Source: an uncultured Pseudohongiella sp.
Lineage (GTDB): Bacteria; Pseudomonadota; Gammaproteobacteria; Pseudomonadales; Pseudohongiellaceae
Assembly: GCA_965221015.1 (NCBI GenBank)
Contig: OZ244859.1
Coordinates: forward strand, 922,046-986,045
Reading direction: 5' to 3'
DNA: 64,000 bases
Part shown: piece after piece, positions 473 to 63,890 of the stretch
How the letters are laid out: each line of letters starts with the position of its first letter
How positions within the stretch are numbered: the stretch's first letter is position 1
Made by a program: the position numbers and the translations under genes
The notes under the pieces: generated by a model
Databases searched by the model: none
Told to the model about the DNA's origin: nothing
Seen by the model: the letters and a program-made list of their open reading frames with translations, nothing else

Positions 473-1075
473 TCATTCCCCGTTAGCCGGATTCTGGGCC
501 AATCTGTCCTCAAGATTGCCGACCCGGGTCTCGACCCGCGCCGTGCGTTCGCGCAAGTCGCTTCTGTCCGCGCGAATCTGGGCCCTTTCCTCCCGCGCCT
601 GCTCGAACCGCTGGTCCATGCGATCTTCGGACTGCTCAATCCGCTGGTCCATGCGATCTTCGGACTGCTCGAACCGCTGGTCCATGCGTTCTTCGAACTG
701 CTCAATCCGCGCGTCCACGCGTTCTTCGGACTGCTCAAACCGCGCGTCCACGCGTTCTTCGGACTGCTCGAATCGCGCGTTCACGCGTTCTTCGAACTGA
801 GCGAACCGCTGGTCCATGCGTTCTTCGAACTTCTCAAACCGCGCGTTCACGCGTTCTTCGGACTGCTCGAAGCGCGCATCCACACTTTCCTCGGACTGCT
901 CGAACCGCGCATCCACGCGTTCTTCGGACAGCTCGAACCGTTCGTACACGCGATCAAACTGACGATTCATGCTGGAATACATCGCGCCCGTCAGCGCGAT
1001 CACACAAACCAGCAACACGTTCGGCGCCGAAGCCTTCGCCATCGCAATTGTCGATTCCAGGTTGGTCTCCATCAC
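473..1075 (-). CDS. Membrane-anchored hendecad (11-residue) repeat protein, paralog 1. It has ~11 repeat units.
   Basis: N-terminal hydrophobic segment APNVLLVCVIALTGAMY, then ERVDARFEQSE-type 11-aa units, then a conserved tail IRAD.SDLRERTARVETRVGNLEDRLA. The ORF-track start is GTG at 1075. A conserved ATG (METNLE) lies 3 nt downstream. Confidence 0.6.
   Translation of the reverse strand: MMETNLESTIAMAKASAPNVLLVCVIALTGAMYSSMNRQFDRVYERFELSEERVDARFEQSEESVDARFEQSEERVNARFEKFEERMDQRFAQFEERVNARFEQSEERVDARFEQSEERVDARIEQFEERMDQRFEQSEDRMDQRIEQSEDRMDQRFEQAREERAQIRADRSDLRERTARVETRVGNLEDRLAQNPANGE
605..967. repeat. 33-bp tandem repeat, 11 units, coding (inside paralog 1)
   Basis: I checked unit boundaries by position at 605, 638, 671 and 704. 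Unit consensus on the + strand is gaaccgcgcgtccacgcgttcttcggactgctc. The last unit is degenerate. Confidence 0.85.
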
Positions 1076-3599: not shown

Positions 3600-4856
3600 T
3601 TGGCTTATTTGCAGGCGACGCTGGGAATTTTCGCCTTCATCGGCATCGCCGTCGCTTGCAGCGACGAGCGCCGGCTGCCAGGCTGGCGCCTCGTCGCCGG
3701 CGGCCTTGGCCTGCAATTCCTGTTCGCCTGGCTGGTGTTCCGCTTCGAACTCGTCCAGGCGGGGCTGCGCGGCATCAATCAACTCGTGCAAACCATCACC
3801 GCCGCGGTGGAAACCGGCAGTACTTTCGTCTTCGGTTATCTCGGCGGCGACCCGGCCAACGTCGCCTATCCGTTCGAGCTGAGCGACGCCAACGCCAGCG
3901 TCATCCTCGCCTTCCGCATCCTGCCACTGATTCTGTTTGTGACCGCATTTTCCGCCGTGCTCTGGCATTTGCGCGTTTTGCCCGTCCTGGTGCGCGCCTT
4001 CTCCCTGGTGTTGCGGCGCGGGCTGGGCGTGGGCGGCGCGGTGGGATTGTCCGCCGCGGCCAATGTCTTCATGGGCATGGTGGAATCGCCGGCCCTGATC
4101 CGGCCCTGCCTGCGCTCGCTCACCCGCAGCGAATTGTTCATCATCATGACCTGCGGCATGGCCACCGTCGCCGGCAGCGTGCTGGTGCTGTACTCGGTCG
4201 TGCTGCAAGGCGTGCTCGACAACGCCCTCGGCCACGTGCTCACCGCCTCGGTGATCAGCGCCCCGGCCGCCATCATGTTCGCGCTGGTCATGGTGCCGGA
4301 GAACGGCGAGAGTCAAGCCGACGAAGTGGAATTGCGCAGCGGTTACCAAAGCATCATGGACGCCGTCACCCAAGGCACCGGCGACGGCCTGCGCCTGATG
4401 CTCAATGTCGGCGCGATGTTGATCGTGCTCATCGCCCTGGTGGCGCTGGTCAACAGCCTGCTGGCGCTGCTGCCCGAAATCGGCGGGCAGAGCATCAGCT
4501 TGCAGGGGCTGTTCGGCTGGTTGTTCGCGCCGCTGGTCTGGCTGATGGGCATTCCCTGGAGCGAAGCGCCCGTGGCCGGCGGCCTGATGGGAACCAAAAC
4601 CGTGCTGAACGAGTTGCTCGCATACTTCGCGCTGGCCGAGTTGCCCGCCGGAGCGCTAAGCGAACGTTCCACCGTGATCCTCACCTACGCCCTTTGCGGC
4701 TTCGCCAATTTCGGCAGCCTCGGCATCATGATCGCCGGCCTCAGCGGCATGTGCCCGGAACGCGCCGGCGAAGTCGTCGAACTCGCCATGCCCGCCCTCA
4801 TTTCAGGCACCCTCGCCACCTGCATGACCGGCACCGTCGCGGGATTGCTTGTTTGA
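3600..4856 (+). CDS. NupC/CNT-family concentrative nucleoside transporter
   Basis: 418-aa polytopic membrane protein with a TTG start. Conserved CNT-type stretches include 'GSTFVFGYLGG', 'FAFRILPLILFV', 'GMATVAGSVL' and 'YALCGFANFGSLGI'. Confidence 0.8.
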   Translation: MAYLQATLGIFAFIGIAVACSDERRLPGWRLVAGGLGLQFLFAWLVFRFELVQAGLRGINQLVQTITAAVETGSTFVFGYLGGDPANVAYPFELSDANASVILAFRILPLILFVTAFSAVLWHLRVLPVLVRAFSLVLRRGLGVGGAVGLSAAANVFMGMVESPALIRPCLRSLTRSELFIIMTCGMATVAGSVLVLYSVVLQGVLDNALGHVLTASVISAPAAIMFALVMVPENGESQADEVELRSGYQSIMDAVTQGTGDGLRLMLNVGAMLIVLIALVALVNSLLALLPEIGGQSISLQGLFGWLFAPLVWLMGIPWSEAPVAGGLMGTKTVLNELLAYFALAELPAGALSERSTVILTYALCGFANFGSLGIMIAGLSGMCPERAGEVVELAMPALISGTLATCMTGTVAGLLV

Positions 4857-4893
4857 GACTATGCCAGCGCCTTGCCAAAGCAACCAATGCCGC

Positions 4894-4913
4894 GGGCGGG
4901 GAATTTCCCGCCC
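4894..4913. terminator. Short hairpin between convergent genes (gggcggg-gaattt-cccgccc)
   Basis: A 7-bp stem lies in the 100-bp gap between the NupC stop (4856) and the M28 peptidase stop (4957). Confidence 0.3.
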
Positions 4914-4956
4914 TGGCTGAAGATTTCAAGAATCCATGGAGTAAATTCCGGCTCGT

Positions 4957-6681
4957 TCAATTGCGCGCGTCCGCGCTCGCCTCGCGCGCTTCCTTGAACT
5001 CGTTGCCTTCGTACCAGGCCGGCCAGCTGGAACCGTTCGCCAACCGCCGGCCGACTTCGAAATACAGCATCACGTCTTCCGCCGCGCCGCTGAGATCCCA
5101 TTCCGGGTCGTACTCGTCGCCGGGGGCGTGGTAGCGGTTGGCGACGTAGTCCTCGCTTCGTTCCACGCCCCAGGCATTGCCGTATTCGCGGCTGTCCGTG
5201 CCGCCTTCGGCGTACAGCCCGGGTACCCCGGCGCGGGCGAACATGAAATGGTCCGAGCGGTAATAAAATCCGCGCTCCGGCGTCGGTTCCGGGACGATGA
5301 CGCGATCCTGGGCCGCGGCCGCCTCGGCAAGATAATCTTCCAGCTCGCTGGCGCCATAGCCGATCACCACCACATCGCGCACCCGGCCCCAGGTGTTCAA
5401 GGCGTCCATATTGATGTTCGCCACCGTGGTTTCCAGCGGATACACCGGATGCTCCACATACCATTGCGAACCCAGCAGGCCCGACTCTTCCGCCGTCACC
5501 GCCAGAAAGACCACGCTGCGCTCCGGCGGCGCCGGCTGCGCCAGAAACAACTCGGCCAGGGCGAGCAACGCGCCGGTGCCCGTGGCGTTGTCCACCGCGC
5601 CGTTCCAGATGTTGTCGCCTTCCATGTCGGCCACCATGCCGAGATGGTCCCAGTGCGCGGTGTAAACAATGGCTTCTTCCGGCCGCGAAGCGCCGGGAAT
5701 CGCGGCGATCACATTGTGCGAACTTGAGCCGCGCACCGCGGTTTCCAGCGCCATGCTGGCGCGAATATCGCCCAGCGGCACGGCGCTGAAGCCCGGCGCC
5801 GCCGCTTGCGCCTTCATTTCCGCGTAATCCATTCCGGCCGCCGCGAACAGCGCGTTCGCGGTCTCCAGCGTGAGCCAGCCCTCGATGGGGGCGAGATGCG
5901 CGTTGTCGTTCTCCGCCGCCAGCGTGATTTGCGGGCCGGACCAGCTATTGTCCACCACGTCCCAGCCGTAGCCCGCCGGCCCCGTCTCGTGCACGATCAA
6001 AATGCCCGCCGCGCCTTGGCGCGCCGCTTCCTCGAACTTGTACATCCAGCGGCCATACCAGGTCATCGCGTTGCCGTTGAACAGCGCCGGGTCCTGGGTG
6101 GCGTAGCCCGGGTCGTTCACCAGCACCACAACCGTCTTGCCCGTGGCATCCACCTCCGCATAATCGTTCCAGCCGCGCTCCGGCGCGTTGATGCCATAGC
6201 CGACGAAAACCACTTCGCTGTCTTCCACCACAATCGGCGAGTTGTGGTGGCGGCTGCCAATCACCATTTCCGTTTTGTACGCGGGGCTGGCGTCGAATGC
6301 GCCGCTGAATTGCAGCACCGGCGTCGAAGTGGCGGTGATTTCCACCACATCCACCTGCTGCGTGTACGCCTCGCCATTGCCCGGCCCCACGCCAAGGGCG
6401 CTGAACTGCTCCGTCAAATACGCAATCGTGCGCCGCCCGCCGGCAGTGGCCGGCGCGCGCCCTTCAAACGCATCCGAGGCAAGCACCGCCGTATGCTCAT
6501 GCAGCACCTGTGCAATCCGCTCCAGCCCAACCGCCGGCGCCGCCGCGCCTTCCACCAAAGCCGCACCCGCCGCCTCCGGCGCCGCCACGCTCCCCATCGC
6601 AGGCGCACTGTCCACCCCCGATTCCCCGCAAGCGGCCAACAAAAGCAAAACCCCCAACACCCCCACCAACCGAGCTTTCAT
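4957..6681 (-). CDS. M28-family metallopeptidase (aminopeptidase) with PA domain; probable lipoprotein
   Basis: The start was trimmed to ATG 6681 (MKARLVGVLGVLLLLAACGE, a lipobox-like LAAC). M28 signatures are 'HWDHLGM', 'NGAVDNATGTGALLALAE' and 'FLAVTAEESGLLGSQ'. Confidence 0.8.
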   Translation of the reverse strand: MKARLVGVLGVLLLLAACGESGVDSAPAMGSVAAPEAAGAALVEGAAAPAVGLERIAQVLHEHTAVLASDAFEGRAPATAGGRRTIAYLTEQFSALGVGPGNGEAYTQQVDVVEITATSTPVLQFSGAFDASPAYKTEMVIGSRHHNSPIVVEDSEVVFVGYGINAPERGWNDYAEVDATGKTVVVLVNDPGYATQDPALFNGNAMTWYGRWMYKFEEAARQGAAGILIVHETGPAGYGWDVVDNSWSGPQITLAAENDNAHLAPIEGWLTLETANALFAAAGMDYAEMKAQAAAPGFSAVPLGDIRASMALETAVRGSSSHNVIAAIPGASRPEEAIVYTAHWDHLGMVADMEGDNIWNGAVDNATGTGALLALAELFLAQPAPPERSVVFLAVTAEESGLLGSQWYVEHPVYPLETTVANINMDALNTWGRVRDVVVIGYGASELEDYLAEAAAAQDRVIVPEPTPERGFYYRSDHFMFARAGVPGLYAEGGTDSREYGNAWGVERSEDYVANRYHAPGDEYDPEWDLSGAAEDVMLYFEVGRRLANGSSWPAWYEGNEFKEAREASADARN

Positions 6682-6968
6682 ACCAACCTCCAACCACCAC
6701 GCCAATCCCAAAATTATAGCACTCTCCAAACTCCCCCCTTGAGGGGTGAGGCCCTAAGAAAGCGCAGCTTTCTTAGGGCCGAACGACCCGACAGGATGTC
6801 GGGGCTGGGGGTAATCGAAGCCGAAATTCCCGCGCCAGGGATGGCAAGCACAATCCACCAGAATCCAATTGCAGATTCTGCGACTCCGCTTCGCTCCGCG
6901 CAGAATGACGTGGATTGGGCTTCACGTCATTGCAGAATGACGAGAGGTAGGGGTCGCCCGTAATGCCA

Positions 6969-7107: not shown

Positions 7108-7263
7108 GATCGAAGCCGAATTCCCCGCGCCAGGGATGGCAAGCACAATCCACCAGAATCCAATTGCAGATTCTGCGACTCCGCTTCGCTCCGCGCAGAA
7201 TGACGTGGATTGGGCTTCACGTCATTGCAGAATGACGAGAGGTAGGGGTCGCCCGTAATGCCA

Positions 7264-48163: not shown

Positions 48164-48189
48164 CACCCGAACCGGCGAAACCGGGGCTA

Positions 48190-48730
48190 GTCGAAGCCAA
48201 CTGTCTCGCGCCAGGGACGGCAAGCACACCCCATCAGAACGCCCGTGCGGACTCCCCCCTTGAGGGGGAGTCAAAACTGCGCAAGCAGTTTTGGTGGGGG
48301 GTGAGGCCCGGTCGGCGCAGCCGACGAAAAGCGGAGCTTTTCGAGGGCCGAACGGCTCGCCAAGGATGGCGAGACTGGGGGTAATCGAAGCCAATAGCCT
48401 CGCGCCAGGGACGGCAAGCACACCCCATCAGAACGCCCGTGCGGACTCCCCCCTTGAGGGGTGAGGCCCGGTCGGCGCAGCCGACGAAAAGCGGAGCTTT
48501 TCGAGGGCCGAACGGCTCGCCAAGGATGGCGAGACTGGGGGTAATCGAAGCCAATAGCCTCGCGCCAGGGACGGCAAGCACACCCCACCAGAACGCCCGT
48601 GCGGACTCCCCCCTTGAGGGGGAGTCAAAACTGCGCAAGCAGTTTTGGTGGGGGGTGAGGCCCGGTCGGCGCAGCCGACGAAAAGCGGAGCTTTTCGAGG
48701 GCCGAACGGCTCGCCAAGGATGGCGAGCCG
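48190..48730. repeat. Tandem array of three composite BIME/REP-like units (~194, ~160, ~187 bp)
   Basis: Units begin with (g)tcgaagccaa at ~48190, ~48384 and ~48544. The middle unit lacks the 'ggagtcaaaactgcgcaagcagttttggtggg' palindrome. Each unit carries three or more hairpins (gtcggc-gca-gccgac; gaaaagc-gga-gcttttc; ctcgcc-aaggat-ggcgag). Confidence 0.85.
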
Positions 48731-48731
48731 C

Positions 48732-49916
48732 TCAATACACCTCGAACAATCCCGCCGCGCCCATGCCTCCGCCAACGCACATCGTGCAGACCACGTAACG
48801 CGCGCCGCGGCGTTTGCCTTCGATCAGCGCGTGGCCGACAAGGCGCGCGCCGCTCATGCCGTAGGGATGGCCGATGGAAATCGCGCCGCCATTGACATTG
48901 AGCAGTTCATTGGGAATGCCGAGATGGTCCCGGCAGTACACCACTTGCACCGCGAACGCCTCGTTCAGTTCCCACAGGTCAATGTCGTCCATCGTCAGAT
49001 TGAAGCGCTTGAGCAATTTCGGCACCGCGTGAATCGGGCCGATGCCCATCTCGTCCGGGTCGAGCCCGGCGGCGGCCATGCCGCGATAGGCGCCAAGCGG
49101 CTCCAGACCTTTGCGCTCGGCGAGTTTGGCGTCCATCAATAGCGAAGCCGAAGCGCCGTCCGACAACTGGCTGGCGTTGCCGGCGGTGATGACACCGCCT
49201 TCAAACACCGTGCGCAAACCGGCCAGCCCTTCACTGGTCGTCGTGGGCCGGTTGCCCTCGTCCTTCTCCAGCGTGACTTCGTGTTGGCTTTGCTTGCCCG
49301 TCGCCTTGTCTGTGAACAACATGGTGGAGGGGAGCGGTGCGATTTCCGCGTCGAAGCGGCCCGCCTGTTGAGCCGCGGCGGTGCGCTGCTGGCTTTGCAG
49401 GGCGAACGCATCTTGCTGTTCGCGGCTGATGTTGTAGCGCTTGGCGACCACTTCGGCGGTTTCCAGCATCGACATATACGCATACTGCGAGCGCGCCGTC
49501 ACGTTCGGGTCCTGGGCGCGATAGCCGTTGCGATGCTCGTTCTGCACCAGGCTGATCGATTCCACACCGCCGCCGACGACGATGGGCATGCCGTCCTGCA
49601 CGATCTGCTTGGCGGCCGTGGCGATCGCCATCATGCCGGATGCGCATTGCCGATCAATGCTCATGCCCGCCACCGAGGAAGGCAGCCCGGCGGCGATGCC
49701 CGCGGTGCGGCCGATATTCTGTCCGGTCGACCCCTGCTGCATCGCGCAGCCAAGAATCACATCATCCACCTCGCCGGGTTCGATTCCGGCCCGTTCCACC
49801 GCCGCCGCGATGGCGTGTCCCGCCATGGTCGGCCCGTCGGTGTCGTTGAACGCGCCCCGGTAGGCTTTGCCAATGGGGGTTCTTGCGGTGGATACGATTA
49901 CTGCCTCGGTGGTCAT
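48732..49916 (-). CDS. Acetyl-CoA C-acyltransferase / acetyltransferase (thiolase)
   Basis: Motifs are '[18 protein letters not shown]', the active-site region '[13 protein letters not shown]', and the C-terminal '[20 protein letters not shown]...[14 protein letters not shown]'. The start was set to ATG 49916, which is preceded by GGAGAGAG. Confidence 0.9.
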
Positions 49917-50107
49917 GTCTCTCTCCATTTGAATTGCGATGTGATCATTGTTGTGACTTCCCGATTACTTAAAGCTTTACTTCCCGGTGGGAATCGCCAA
50001 TTCGTTGGCCCAAGTCGATGTGGTTCCGAGTAAAACAAGGCCAGACTCAGGTTCGGGGCCGGAGGCGATTTTCCTGAACGCGAGAATACCGCATCAGGTC
50101 GGGTTGT

Positions 50108-50629
50108 TCATGAAACGACGATCAGCGCCGCGATTTCATCGATCGCCTCGCGGGCAAGGACCGCCATTTCGGCGTCGGTACGGTCTTGTATCGGATGCGG
50201 GATAAAGACGCTTTTTGGCGCGATGCCAAGTGATTTGCCCTGGGCCGCGGCCGCTTCCTGGAATTCGCAGGATGCGATATAACCCGCCGGCAAACCCCGG
50301 CGTTCCAAATCGAGCATGTCATGCAAACTGCACGACGTGCAGGAGCCTCAGTCCGCCAGGGCTTCGACCACCGCGTCGCATTCGGCGCCAATCTGCTGCA
50401 GCAGGGGGAGCGGGGCGACCCGGGTGAAAGTGGGTTTGCTGTAGCGCCTCACCTTGGCGCCGCGCTGTTCCAGCCCGGACTGCACTTCGTCGAGGAACTC
50501 CTTGCCCCGCGGCTTGGAAATATCCAGCAGGCCGACCGTGGCGCCTTCCAGACTGGCCAGTCTCGCGTTCAACCCGCGCTCCACCGGCGCCAATTCGCCC
50601 GTGGGATCCAGCAATGTCGTAACGTTCAT
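50108..50629 (-). CDS. Probable selenoprotein with a U-G-S-C motif. The in-frame TGA at 50348-50350 would be read as Sec, joining two track ORFs.
   Basis: Track ORFs 50348..50650 and 50108..50326 are in the same frame, separated only by TGA plus 7 sense codons. The joined sequence reads ...AVVEALAD-U-GSCTSCSLHDMLDLERRG.... The second ORF has only a TTG start and no RBS. ATG 50629 is preceded by GGGAGAGG. Confidence 0.6.
50328..50342 (-). promoter_or_regulatory. Candidate SECIS-like hairpin (CUGCAC-GUC-GUGCAG) starting 5 nt after the UGA
   Basis: It is a perfect 6-bp stem with a GUC loop on the mRNA strand. A second hairpin, CGCCGG-GGUUUG-CCGGCG, lies ~45 nt downstream of the UGA. Confidence 0.35.
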
Positions 50630-50671
50630 GCTTGGCCTCTCCCAAAACAAACCACCATTCTAGCAGCCCCC

Positions 50672-50890
50672 ACGGAGATTCTGCGACTCCGCTTCGCGGC
50701 GCGCAGAATGACGTGGATTGGGTTTCCCGTCATTCCGCGCGCAGTCGCGGAATCTCTTTGGGTTGGCGCCATGGTTGGGAGATTCTGCGACTCCGCTTCG
50801 CTGCGCGCAGAATGACGTGGATTGGGTTTCCCGTCATTGCAGAATGACGTGGGGTAGGGGCCGACACAAATGCCAGGGTCCGCGGGCGCC
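50672..50890. repeat. Two copies of REP module B plus a partial arm of the 139-bp element
   Basis: gattctgcgactccgcttcgc.gcgcgcagaatgacgtggattgggtttcccgtcatt occurs at ~50675 and ~50778. It is followed by gccagggtccgcgggcgcc at 50872-50890. The region sits between two co-oriented genes. Confidence 0.8.
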
Positions 50891-50893
50891 AAA

Positions 50894-52327
50894 TCACGAA
50901 ATCTCCCGCGACACAAGCTGGCTCCCGCGCTCCCCGGCCGCCACCCAGCCGCCAATAATCGCCGAGAACATCCCCGCCGTGCCGCCGAGACTAACGATAT
51001 GCAAGCCGTCGTCGCGAAACTTTTGCAACATCTTCCCGCCCAGGTGCTCCGGCATGCCTTCGGCGATGCCATCAACGCCGCGCAGAATCTGCCGCCCCGG
51101 CACAAGCAGCCGCTCGTACAGCGCTTCGCGCAAATCGGCCTTGGACCAGCCGCCCTCGCGCAGCACACGGCGGTGTTCCGGGCTGATCACCAGCACCGCG
51201 TCCGCCATGCCGAACAACTTGCAATGCGCCACCGCGCACAGACTCGCGGCCAAGCTGCCGGCAAGCGATTCCGGGGTGCGCGATCTCTGGTCCACTATCC
51301 CCTGCAAGCCTTCCCCGGCGAACAGGCTGACCACCGAGTCTCCGCGGGCGAAGCCGCGGTCCATCGCCAGGCTCGGCCAGTCGAGGTCGGATTCGTCTTC
51401 GGCGAAACAATAGCTGTATTTGCCGGGATTGCCCAGCGCCGCGCGGTCGATGCCGCCGGGAATGCCGCCGCCGACATTGCGGATGATCAATTGCAGCGCC
51501 CGGCCAATCGTGGCGTTGGCGCGATTGCCCTGGCCCAGGGCGTTGACCCCGGAGTTCATGCCAACGCGCTGCGCCGCCGGGCCATTGACGATGACCACCG
51601 GCGCGGAAAAATACGTCGTGCAAAGCAAGCCATGCATGCAGAATCGGTCGTCCAGGGCCGCTTCCAGCGCGGCGATGACCAGCGGCATGTATTCCGGCTT
51701 GCAGCCCGCCATGACCGCGTTGATGGCGACTTTTTCAATGCTGCAATGAACCCGGTTCGGCGGCACCGCGCCGATAATCTCGCCGGCATCGCGGTCCGTG
51801 CCGCCAAGCATGCGCAAGACCCGCTCCGGCGTCGGCGGCACCACCGGCAGACCGTCGCTCCAGCCGCGCTCGAAGCAGCTTTCCAGCTCGTCCTCGGCGC
51901 TTGCCAATTCCAGCTTGCGTGCGCCGAAATCCGCGTGCCGCGCCGCCAGTTTCTCCGCCACGCCGGGCTCGAGCGTGCGCGAACCGCAGCCCGGCCGATG
52001 CGGCGCAAGTTCCTCGCCGAGGTCCGCGATTCCGGTGAACTCGCGCCATTCGCCCCGGTCCCAACCGACGACCCGCCCTCCGTCGCCGCCAGCGCCATCC
52101 CCGCGCAGCAAAGTGGGCACAATCTCAATCTCGTTGCGCCAGGAAAACTCCAGATCCCGGTCGTCAATCGCCGCAAAATTTCCTGGAAAAGCCGGATCGT
52201 CCTGCACATAAACCGATAAGCCGCCCTCAAGCCGCCGCCCCAACAGCGGAATCAGCGGCGCAATCAATGCGCAAGTGGGGCAGTCCTTCTTCACTACCAA
52301 AGCGTAACCTGTGGCCACAGACACCAT
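50894..52327 (-). CDS. Thioredoxin-fold (CPTC) N-terminal domain fused to a large domain of unknown function
   Basis: The N-terminus 'YALVVKKDCPTCALIAPLI...VPTLL' looks like a Trx-fold CxxC. I did not recognise the remaining ~370 aa (..RPGCGSRTLEP.., ..GWSDGLPVVPPT.., ..NAVMAGCKPEYMP..). Confidence 0.5.
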   Translation of the reverse strand: MVSVATGYALVVKKDCPTCALIAPLIPLLGRRLEGGLSVYVQDDPAFPGNFAAIDDRDLEFSWRNEIEIVPTLLRGDGAGGDGGRVVGWDRGEWREFTGIADLGEELAPHRPGCGSRTLEPGVAEKLAARHADFGARKLELASAEDELESCFERGWSDGLPVVPPTPERVLRMLGGTDRDAGEIIGAVPPNRVHCSIEKVAINAVMAGCKPEYMPLVIAALEAALDDRFCMHGLLCTTYFSAPVVIVNGPAAQRVGMNSGVNALGQGNRANATIGRALQLIIRNVGGGIPGGIDRAALGNPGKYSYCFAEDESDLDWPSLAMDRGFARGDSVVSLFAGEGLQGIVDQRSRTPESLAGSLAASLCAVAHCKLFGMADAVLVISPEHRRVLREGGWSKADLREALYERLLVPGRQILRGVDGIAEGMPEHLGGKMLQKFRDDGLHIVSLGGTAGMFSAIIGGWVAAGERGSQLVSREIS

Positions 52328-62339: not shown

Positions 62340-63890
62340 TTGCTGGAAAAATCCACTCCGGTGATCGTGGGCGCCGGGCAATACATGGAACGGGACCTGG
62401 CGCCGCATGAGGCGCTGCCGCCCATGGCCATCGCGGCCAAGGCCGCCGCCGCCGCTTTGGCCGACACCGGTGTGGACAACGGCTTGAGACAGGCGCTTGC
62501 GTCCCAGATCGACACCTTGGCGGTGGTTCGCATCATCCAGGATTCGCGCAACCGGCCCCGGGACGATGTCGCTTTCGGCCGGGCGGAAAATCCGCCCCGC
62601 GCCGTCGCGCGGCGCATTGGCGCGAATCCGGCCCACGCCATCTATGGCTGCATCGGCGGCGATACGCCGCAAACCCTGGTCAATGAAATCGCCCAGGCCA
62701 TCGCCCGGGGCGAGGTTGGCCTGGCGCTGCTGGCCGGCGGCGAGGCCATCGCCACCGCGCGCGCCGCCATGCGCGCCGGGGTCGGTCTTGACTGGCGTGA
62801 GGAAGACCACGGTTCCCTCGACGACCGCGGCATGGGCGCGCAATTGGCGACCGCGCATGAAATGGCCCACGGCATCGGCATTCCCGTGCAAACCTATCCC
62901 TTGTTCGAAAACGCCATCCGCGCCCGGCACGGCCACAGCGTGGCAGCGCATTTGCGCCACATGGGCGCATATATGGCGCCGTTCAGCCGCGTGGCGAGCC
63001 ACAATCCCTTCGCCTGTTACGGCCAGCTTCACACGGCGGCGGAATTGGCCGAAGTGACCGCCGGGAATCGCTACATCTGCCTGCCGTATCCAAAACTGTT
63101 GAACGCCAGGGACAACGTCAATCAGGGCGCCGCCCTGGTGCTGACTTCGGTGGGCAAAGCCATGGAACTGGGCATCGATCCGAACCGCTGGGTTTACCTG
63201 CACGGCTGCGGCGAAGCGCGGGACAAGCTGGTCGGCGAACGCGCCGACTTCCACGTCTCGCCGGCGATTCGCGCCAATGCCGCCACCGCCTTCGCAATGG
63301 CCGGCAAGTCCGCGGCGGACATGGACTATATCGACCTGTACTCCTGTTTTCCTTCCGCCGTGGAAATCGCCTGCGACGAATTGGGGCTGGACCTGGACGA
63401 CCCCCGCGGCTTGACGGTAACCGGCGGGCTGCCTTTTTTCGGCGGCCCCGGCAACAACTACAGCACCCACGCCATCGCCACCATGGTGAACTTGCTGCGC
63501 GAAAGGCCGGGGAGCTTCGGCCTGGTGACCGCCAACGGTGGCCTGCTTTCCAAGCACGCCACGGGAATCTATTCAACGACGCCGGTTTTCGGCAGCTGGT
63601 CCCAGCCCGACTTCAGCGCCGATCAGGCGGCGGTGGACGCCATGCCCAGCCCCATACTCGCGCAACAGGCGCAAGGCCGGGCATTGGTTGAGACCTACAC
63701 GCTGTGCCACACCCGCGGCGTTCCCGCCCGCGGCATCGTCATCGGCCGCCTGCGCGCCGACGGCCGCCGTTTTCTCGCCAACACCCCAAGCGACCCCGCA
63801 ACCCTAGCCCGCCTCGCCACCCAGGACCAAATGGGCCGCGCCGGCTGGGTCAGCACCACCCCCCAAGGCAACACATTCGTCCCCGACTAA
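62340..63890 (+). CDS. Thiolase-like (SCP2-thiolase/'acetyl-CoA acetyltransferase'-type) protein with a C-terminal extension
   Basis: TTG start. The fold is thiolase-like: 'VIVGAGQ', 'DNVNQGAALVLTS', 'DLYSCFPSAVEIACDELGL' and 'TVTGGLPFFGGPGNNYSTHAI'. About 100 extra C-terminal residues follow. Confidence 0.65.
   Translation: MLEKSTPVIVGAGQYMERDLAPHEALPPMAIAAKAAAAALADTGVDNGLRQALASQIDTLAVVRIIQDSRNRPRDDVAFGRAENPPRAVARRIGANPAHAIYGCIGGDTPQTLVNEIAQAIARGEVGLALLAGGEAIATARAAMRAGVGLDWREEDHGSLDDRGMGAQLATAHEMAHGIGIPVQTYPLFENAIRARHGHSVAAHLRHMGAYMAPFSRVASHNPFACYGQLHTAAELAEVTAGNRYICLPYPKLLNARDNVNQGAALVLTSVGKAMELGIDPNRWVYLHGCGEARDKLVGERADFHVSPAIRANAATAFAMAGKSAADMDYIDLYSCFPSAVEIACDELGLDLDDPRGLTVTGGLPFFGGPGNNYSTHAIATMVNLLRERPGSFGLVTANGGLLSKHATGIYSTTPVFGSWSQPDFSADQAAVDAMPSPILAQQAQGRALVETYTLCHTRGVPARGIVIGRLRADGRRFLANTPSDPATLARLATQDQMGRAGWVSTTPQGNTFVPD

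Follow-up and report, generated by a model that had tools for sequence, protein, structure and literature searches.

We analysed a stretch of 64,000 nucleotides from an uncultured Pseudohongiella sp. (contig OZ244859.1 of assembly GCA_965221015.1), referred to below as the window, in which two short open reading frames (ORFs) on the minus strand are separated by an in-frame TGA codon. Positions 50629..50108 (minus strand) almost certainly form a single gene for a selenoprotein of the UGSC family, with UGA codon 94 decoded as selenocysteine (Sec). The evidence comprises family membership, the conservation of both the TGA codon and a hairpin downstream of it, the loss of this hairpin in cysteine forms of the gene, and linkage to a partner gene, including fusions of the two.

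One UGSC-family gene across an in-frame UGA

The gene was delineated from its translation, from family profiles, and from the end-to-end alignment of homologues, and it comprises 173 codons (M1...D93-U94-G95-S96-C97-T98-S99-C100...S173) plus a terminal TGA stop at 50110..50108. The in-frame UGA at 50350..50348 (minus strand) is assigned to Sec at residue 94 on the basis of the conserved TGA column in relatives and the Cys found there in full-length homologues. The upstream 100-aa ORF (50348..50650, minus strand) ends in ...CDAVVEALAD followed by the TGA, beyond which the open frame reads GSCTSCSLHDMLDLERRGLP... until the stop at 50110..50108; the frame downstream of 50350..50348 is also written GSCTSCSLHDMLDLERRG..., and the residues flanking the Sec position are ...AVVEALAD-U-GSCTSCSLHDMLDLER. 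An initial annotation made from the sequence alone had pointed out that the downstream 72-aa ORF (50108..50326) has only a TTG start and no ribosome-binding site, and direct reading of the sequence bears this out: the TTG sits inside the joined frame, and this ORF has neither an ATG nor a ribosome-binding site. Judged from sequence, the start of the joined gene is the ATG at 50629 and not the TTG at 50650, because a Shine-Dalgarno sequence (GGGAGAGG, 50643..50636, minus strand) can be read there with a 6-nt spacer to the ATG and homologues begin at the same position.

An open frame of 79 codons is weak evidence on its own. For the family scans, the joined protein was used with U replaced by C. 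It scored 139.2 bits against the NCBIfam equivalog model NF041046, "UGSC family (seleno)protein" (curated cut-off 125), and 138.3 bits against Pfam PF24696 (cut-off 25), the latter match covering 165 of the 173 residues; the family name given in the initial annotation is the correct one. The N-terminal piece alone matches positions 2-68 of the UGSC profile (E 6e-13) and the C-terminal piece alone matches positions 70-145 (E 4e-19). Each half thus matches its own part of the profile, and the TGA falls at one profile position within one domain. The pieces follow one another along the profile, and an AlphaFold2 (AF2) model of a Cys homologue forms one compact α/β domain. The family motif, U/C-G-S-C, is present as TGA-GSCTSC and aligns with Cys in homologues.

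A genome scan restricted to one genome per species returned at least 597 related loci, of which the best 80 were analysed. The nearest are in metagenome-assembled genomes of Pseudohongiella and Pseudohongiellaceae (81-83% identity), and the set as a whole covers Gammaproteobacteria, Acidimicrobiia, Chloroflexota, and Myxococcota. TGA occupies the Sec column in 80/80 loci and is followed by GSCT[ST]C (79 GSCTSC, 1 GSCTTC), and the tblastn matches cross the TGA. Beyond it, 81/81 sequences (the 80 loci and the window) have a further 78-94 open codons before one of several stop codons. Together with the family scores above their cut-offs, this supports the suggestion of the initial annotation that the TGA joins two ORFs into one protein.

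A protein search covering 5.8 billion proteins identified 17 full-length homologues of 171-204 aa, which align end to end with the joined protein and carry Cys at the U column in 14 cases, Trp in 2, and Arg in 1; the Cys-containing homologues across the junction that had been anticipated do exist. The same search returned hundreds of gene calls of ~96 aa terminating exactly at ...LAD. Full-length Sec/Cys forms next to calls that end at ...LAD are the picture expected for a Sec/Cys family cut by gene callers, and the predicted splitting of this gene can be seen directly on a 9.4-kb ENA contig from an independent assembly, where the identical locus is annotated as 93-aa and 69-aa products, both assigned to PF24696. 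At the protein level, the Sec column is W in P0004 and R in P0006. Among the Cys-form loci, L082 has TGT and L083 has TGC at this column.

Candidate SECIS hairpin and reading of the UGA

According to the published model of the bacterial selenocysteine insertion sequence (bSECIS), the apical loop measures 3-9 nt and tops an upper stem of 4-16 bp, one of the two leading loop nucleotides is G, as a rule with G or U after it, the loop lies 16-37 nt from the UGA, and the minimum free energy (MFE) is -7.5 kcal/mol or lower (PMC13188914). Downstream of the UGA, a probable SECIS element (50344..50310, minus strand; RNAfold MFE -15.5 kcal/mol) consists of lower helices UC/GA and GCA/UGC around an upper stem-loop, GUCGUGCA-GUU-UGCAUGAC (50336..50318, minus strand). 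The upper stem-loop has 8 bp and a GUU apical loop at 50328..50326 that starts 19 nt after the UGA, and its pair probability is 0.99; the upper stem alone contributes -10.6 kcal/mol. Loop (3 nt), stem (8 bp), distance (19 nt), and energy (-15.5 kcal/mol) all lie within the bSECIS limits. The same GUU stem-loop is found in essentially all of the 81 sequences, and the divergent locus L085 has the same architecture. In an alignment of 65 distinct sequences, on which pairing and covariation were computed, the upper stem is 95.8% paired and nearly invariant, and both positions of the GU at the loop start are invariant. The lower helix shows compensatory changes in three pairs (19 cells, compared with 9.2 +/- 2.4 after shuffling; 0/500).

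The clearest evidence for a SECIS is the freezing of synonymous sites. Across the 81 sequences, codons +5..+10 are fixed as Ser UCG (79/80), Cys UGC (81/81), Ser AGU (80/80), Leu/Val NUG, His CAY, and Asp GAC (81/81), and synonymous entropy is near zero within this segment, while the codons flanking it are free to vary. Outside this segment, the gene encodes these residues with mixed codons (Cys TGT 48 and TGC 33; Asp GAC 54 and GAT 27). The Cys-form genes serve as a control, since the hairpin is lost in both L082 and L083, where the same register gives -5.5 and -1.5 kcal/mol, respectively.

The initial annotation had placed the SECIS in a different hairpin, CUGCAC-GUC-GUGCAG (50342..50328, minus strand). 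This 6-bp hairpin does exist: the complementarity is real, it starts 5 nt after the UGA as described, 90% of its pairing is retained over the 65 distinct sequences, and in isolation its energy of -7.5 kcal/mol equals the bSECIS threshold exactly. It is nevertheless very unlikely to be the functional SECIS of the same selenoprotein. Its loop lies 11 nt from the UGA, compared with 16-37 nt in the model, and in 20/65 relatives the loop is CUC or AUC and lacks a G (the Thr codon ending in C or A). It shows zero covariation, its pairs being dictated by the codons UGY-ACN-UCG-UGC-A, and it is mutually exclusive with the stronger overlapping hairpin; the RNAfold MFE structure contains the 8-bp GUU hairpin, and the ensemble pair probability of the 6-bp hairpin is only ~0.0001. 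Furthermore, codons +8..+10 fall outside CUGCAC-GUC-GUGCAG and form the 3' arm of the 8-bp hairpin, which means that their frozen synonymous sites are left unexplained by the shorter hairpin. Taken together, the sequence comparisons indicate that the SECIS is probably the 8-bp GUU-loop hairpin at 50336..50318, not the 6-bp one, which is probably a by-product of the codons for C-T-S-C.

As for the decoding machinery, the 64-kb window is devoid of tRNA genes, and the ORFs scanned showed no SelA, SelB, or SelD domains. A related Pseudohongiella single-cell genome (L024) does carry a tRNA-Sec gene at 622-717 (minus strand), ~9.5 kb upstream of its own UGSC cassette on the same contig; it was called by ARAGORN and scores 62 bits against Rfam RF01852 (gathering score 47). 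The presence of tRNA-Sec in this relative suggests Sec decoding at the level of the lineage. This tRNA-Sec gene adjoins a gene of the DUF547 family, and no sel genes lie beside it in the portion of the contig examined.

It is highly improbable that the UGA is read through without selenium, that is, as Trp, Cys, or Gly by a near-cognate tRNA or under a reassigned code, with the hairpin merely stimulating the process. Such a reading could draw on the negative search of the window for Sec machinery, and on one metagenomic relative, L084 (ENA ERZ27254974), whose UGSC homologue, P0002, reads TGG (Trp) in the Sec column (codon 603-605) with the SECIS hairpin still intact (-12.4 kcal/mol). However, this lone TGG lies on a 930-nt contig and may be a sequencing error or a change of UGA to UGG that happened very recently. 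TGA also terminates the window gene and about one third of its orthologues, indicating that the genetic code is standard and that the internal UGA needs a local signal. The alternation of Sec and Cys, a hairpin with a GU loop at the canonical distance from the UGA, and the tRNA-Sec gene of the relative together form a Sec signature, and UGSC is an accepted selenoprotein family. That the TGA is instead a real stop, leaving a pseudogene or two small genes for 93-aa and 72-aa proteins, is scarcely credible: automatic gene callers do annotate two products and the window shows no Sec machinery, but a nonsense codon fixed in 80/80 loci across phyla, with 79 downstream codons conserved at the protein level, excludes both versions, and moreover the second piece lacks both an ATG and a ribosome-binding site, the pieces are consecutive halves of one domain, and the Cys forms are continuous.

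Several observations weigh against decoding of codon 94 as Sec through the 8-bp hairpin, or against the wider view of the protein and its partner given below. The genes selA, selB, selD, and tRNA-Sec were not found within the 64-kb window, which leaves Sec competence of the source genome itself presumptive. Rfam gave no SECIS or tRNA-Sec match, either at the gathering threshold on the whole window or at E <= 10 on 50200-50450, a result that is uninformative because Rfam holds no UGSC-specific SECIS model. The nearly invariant upper stem shows one-sided changes only (G-U to G-C or A-U), so that covariation proper comes from the lower helix only; in the window's own clade, this lower helix uses a register other than that of the majority. 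On the protein side, the fold was predicted for a homologue (P0001) and not for the window protein, and the AF2 model of the partner is poor over its catalytic domain, the remaining ~350 residues.

Predicted fold, partner gene and proposed mechanism

An AF2 model was made for the closest full-length Cys homologue, P0001, which is 59% identical to the window protein. The model (mean predicted local distance difference test [pLDDT] score 89) is a five-stranded parallel α/β sandwich of the flavodoxin type with strands alternating with helices, and the Cys/Sec residue is located where a strand ends and a helix begins. Foldseek ranks lumazine synthase, flavodoxin, and corrinoid-domain folds highest, with template modelling (TM) scores of 0.4-0.5, and thioredoxin folds are absent from its matches. 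The UGSC selenoprotein is therefore predicted to adopt a flavodoxin-like fold. A thioredoxin-like fold had been guessed for UGSC in the 2008 literature (PMC2398784); this suggestion is not supported for the selenoprotein itself, because Foldseek finds generic flavodoxin-like folds only. A sequence search of the PDB gave nothing useful for either the UGSC protein or its partner.

The partner gene (50894..52327, minus strand) encodes a 477-aa protein with an N-terminal thioredoxin-like domain (C16-P-T-C19) and a Cys-rich C-terminal domain of ~340 aa. The initial annotation had described it as a thioredoxin-fold CxxC gene immediately upstream in the same orientation; orientation and motif (CPTC at 16-19) are as stated, but the product is a two-domain protein and not a simple thioredoxin. 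In 80/80 loci the next gene upstream of UGSC, in the same orientation, is the partner (50-84% identity). It also adjoins the UGSC gene in three further loci (two Cys-form loci and L085); with the window included, it accompanies UGSC at all 84 loci inspected, and it is the sole neighbour conserved across clades. In the window, 264 nt separate the two genes, and in two Cys-form loci the partner stop codon and the UGSC start codon overlap. The N terminus of the partner gives weak thioredoxin-like matches only, and its C-terminal domain of ~340 aa has no Pfam or NCBIfam match. In the AF2 model of the partner (pLDDT 57), the N-terminal thioredoxin-like domain is confident and the remainder is poor. 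The remaining ~350 residues are highly conserved, with invariant Cys at 114, 151, 195, 209, 230, 236, and 307. The 477-aa protein is 100% identical to protein P0121, which is encoded on a 3.4-Mb contig in public data.

An exhaustive search showed that the partner family is very large: close proteins number at least 8,000, and clustering at 50% identity gives 5,935 representative clusters. NCBI labels some of its members just "thioredoxin." The partner domain occurs in four forms: fused to thioredoxin, stand-alone (~350 aa), multi-stretch (~710 aa), and fused to UGSC (533-564 aa). Its core is found in a thioredoxin-fused form adjoining UGSC, in a stand-alone form adjoining UGSC, and fused to Cys-type UGSC. 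Locus L085 illustrates the second arrangement, with a stand-alone partner of ~350 aa followed by a split Sec-type UGSC gene. Proteins of ~710 aa contain two or three matched stretches, and the 4 kb analysed for one of them, in L086, contain no UGSC gene. At least six fusions of 533-564 aa begin with a UGSC-type region that has Cys in the U column and end with the partner domain; the motif is CGSCTSW in four of them, CGASSSW in one, and CGTSTSM in one, and family models confirm the UGSC-partner fusion in two of the six (P0334 and P0386). Such proteins are probably what PMC2398784 refers to as the "UGSC/Unknown_1 fusion." Further candidate fusions in L040, L061, L068, and L079, which have long in-frame upstream ORFs, were rejected; the partner there lies in a different frame, so these ORFs are chance open frames in GC-rich DNA.

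Adjacency and fusion argue that the partner and UGSC genes of the window act together. The UGSC selenoprotein and its partner can further be proposed to form an obligate two-component redox enzyme, widespread in aquatic bacteria, with Sec94 as the catalytic nucleophile of a new selenoenzyme, a proposal on which we consider the balance even. In such an enzyme, the Sec94 protein would not be a generic "thioredoxin-like" redox protein, and the acyl-CoA enzymes encoded nearby would hint at the substrate area.

The mechanism described next is inferred as regards the binding of SelB, the redox cycling of the Se-S pair, and the direction in which electrons move. SelB carrying Sec-tRNA(Sec) would bind the SECIS in the coding sequence just downstream of codon 94, by analogy with bacterial Sec decoding in general, and the UGA would be read as Sec. 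The SECIS would be the helix GUCGUGCA/UGCAUGAC capped by the GUU loop and seated on the variable lower helix. The product is predicted to be a ~19-kDa flavodoxin-like α/β protein with Sec94 at a β-strand/helix junction within the motif U-G-S-C-T-S-C, and Sec94 probably cycles with Cys97 via a selenenylsulfide (Se-S bond). This protein would act jointly with the upstream 477-aa protein, whose thioredoxin-like CPTC module could swap reducing equivalents with the U-x-x-C centre; the substrate chemistry would reside in the Cys-rich C-terminal domain of the 477-aa protein.

Known selenoprotein systems and genomic surroundings

The recoding of UGSC genes is already known and represents textbook bacterial Sec decoding: descriptions of the family date back to 2008, current reviews list it, and NCBI provides a curated model. 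Among marine selenoproteins, the UGSC-containing protein forms a major family, represented by 255 Sec forms and 21 Cys forms in the Global Ocean Sampling (GOS) metagenomes (PMC2398784). The window gene shares with the known family (NF041046, PF24696; Zhang & Gladyshev, PMC2398784) the U-G-S-C-T-S-C motif, the alternation of Sec and Cys, and the type of organism, aquatic Pseudomonadales-like Gammaproteobacteria; nothing essential differs, except that in the window two repeats resembling repetitive extragenic palindromes (REP-like repeats) separate the gene from its partner. What the analysis adds is a definition of the family SECIS, based on synonymous-site freezing and on the loss of the hairpin in Cys forms, and a tie between the selenoprotein and a large protein family lacking a model. 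The partner family thereby offers a practical handle on the role of one of the ocean's most abundant selenoproteins. For annotation, the locus should be described as one 173-residue selenoprotein and not as two hypothetical ORFs; hundreds of database entries are still split.

Like the archetypal bSECIS of Escherichia coli fdhF, the candidate SECIS of the window is a stem-loop in the coding region 3' of the UGA with a small loop starting with GU (8 bp and 19 nt in the window). Compared with the bSECIS consensus, its primary sequence is UGSC-specific and is constrained by the codons for T-S-C-S-L/V-H-D. Selenoproteins of the thioredoxin-fold group (Trx-like, Prx-like, and SelW-like) share with it a U-x-x-C at a helix N terminus and a linked CxxC thioredoxin-like module, which is here on the partner, whereas the window protein is predicted to be flavodoxin-like and has no thioredoxin family match. 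The B subunits of glycine and D-proline reductase (GrdB/PrdB) also have a UxxC Sec motif and also work with a dedicated partner, but the window partner has no similarity to GrdE or PrdA. A marginal match aligns TIGR01917 positions 334-404 with UGSC residues 81-154 across the Sec (E 0.0013), and this likeness to GrdB should be taken as a lead from sequence, not as evidence of membership. Membership in GrdB/PrdB was rejected, as TIGR01917 gave 17.7 bits compared with a cut-off of 602 and Pfam GRDB had no match at E <= 10.

The gap between the partner and UGSC genes contains two copies of a 61-nt palindromic REP-like repeat (50674..50734 and 50778..50838), which widen it to its 264 nt; in most relatives the gap is tens of nucleotides or less, and relatives lack this REP-like insertion. 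The intergenic RNA around the repeats is strongly structured (fold z-score -4.6), and neither a sigma-70 promoter nor an intrinsic terminator was detected in the gap. The repeat, with the core GATTCTGCGACTCCGCTTCGCNGCGCGCAGAATGACG, occurs four times in the window, the other two being related copies at 6874-6910 and 7169-7205.

Directly downstream of the cassette lies a thiolase gene (48732-49928, minus strand), which is found at 42 gammaproteobacterial loci with 80-93% identity and is syntenic only within the gammaproteobacterial clade. In L085, a family-III CoA-transferase gene (3857-5104) overlaps the UGSC stop codon. Recurrent acyl-CoA enzymes may hint at a pathway, or they may reflect plain synteny. 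A second thiolase-like gene of the window, with TLP1_add_C and Thiolase_C_1 domains, is located at 62340-63890 (plus strand), and an ammonium transporter, a cupin, and a sensor kinase/phosphatase cluster occupy 54.4-62.3 kb.

On the other side of the thiolase gene, positions 10127-48163 (plus strand) form an uninterrupted ORF of 12,678 codons (38 kb). Its product contains FN3 and He_PIG (putative Ig) domains in repeated copies, numerous long internal repeats that are almost identical to one another, and a Gly/Met-rich stretch near the C terminus, and it resembles a giant protein of the surface or adhesin type. Four copies of another repeat of ~160 nt, spaced 160-194 nt apart, lie at 48101-48808, in an array that spans the end of the giant ORF to the 3' end of the thiolase gene, and the central two copies are 99% identical.

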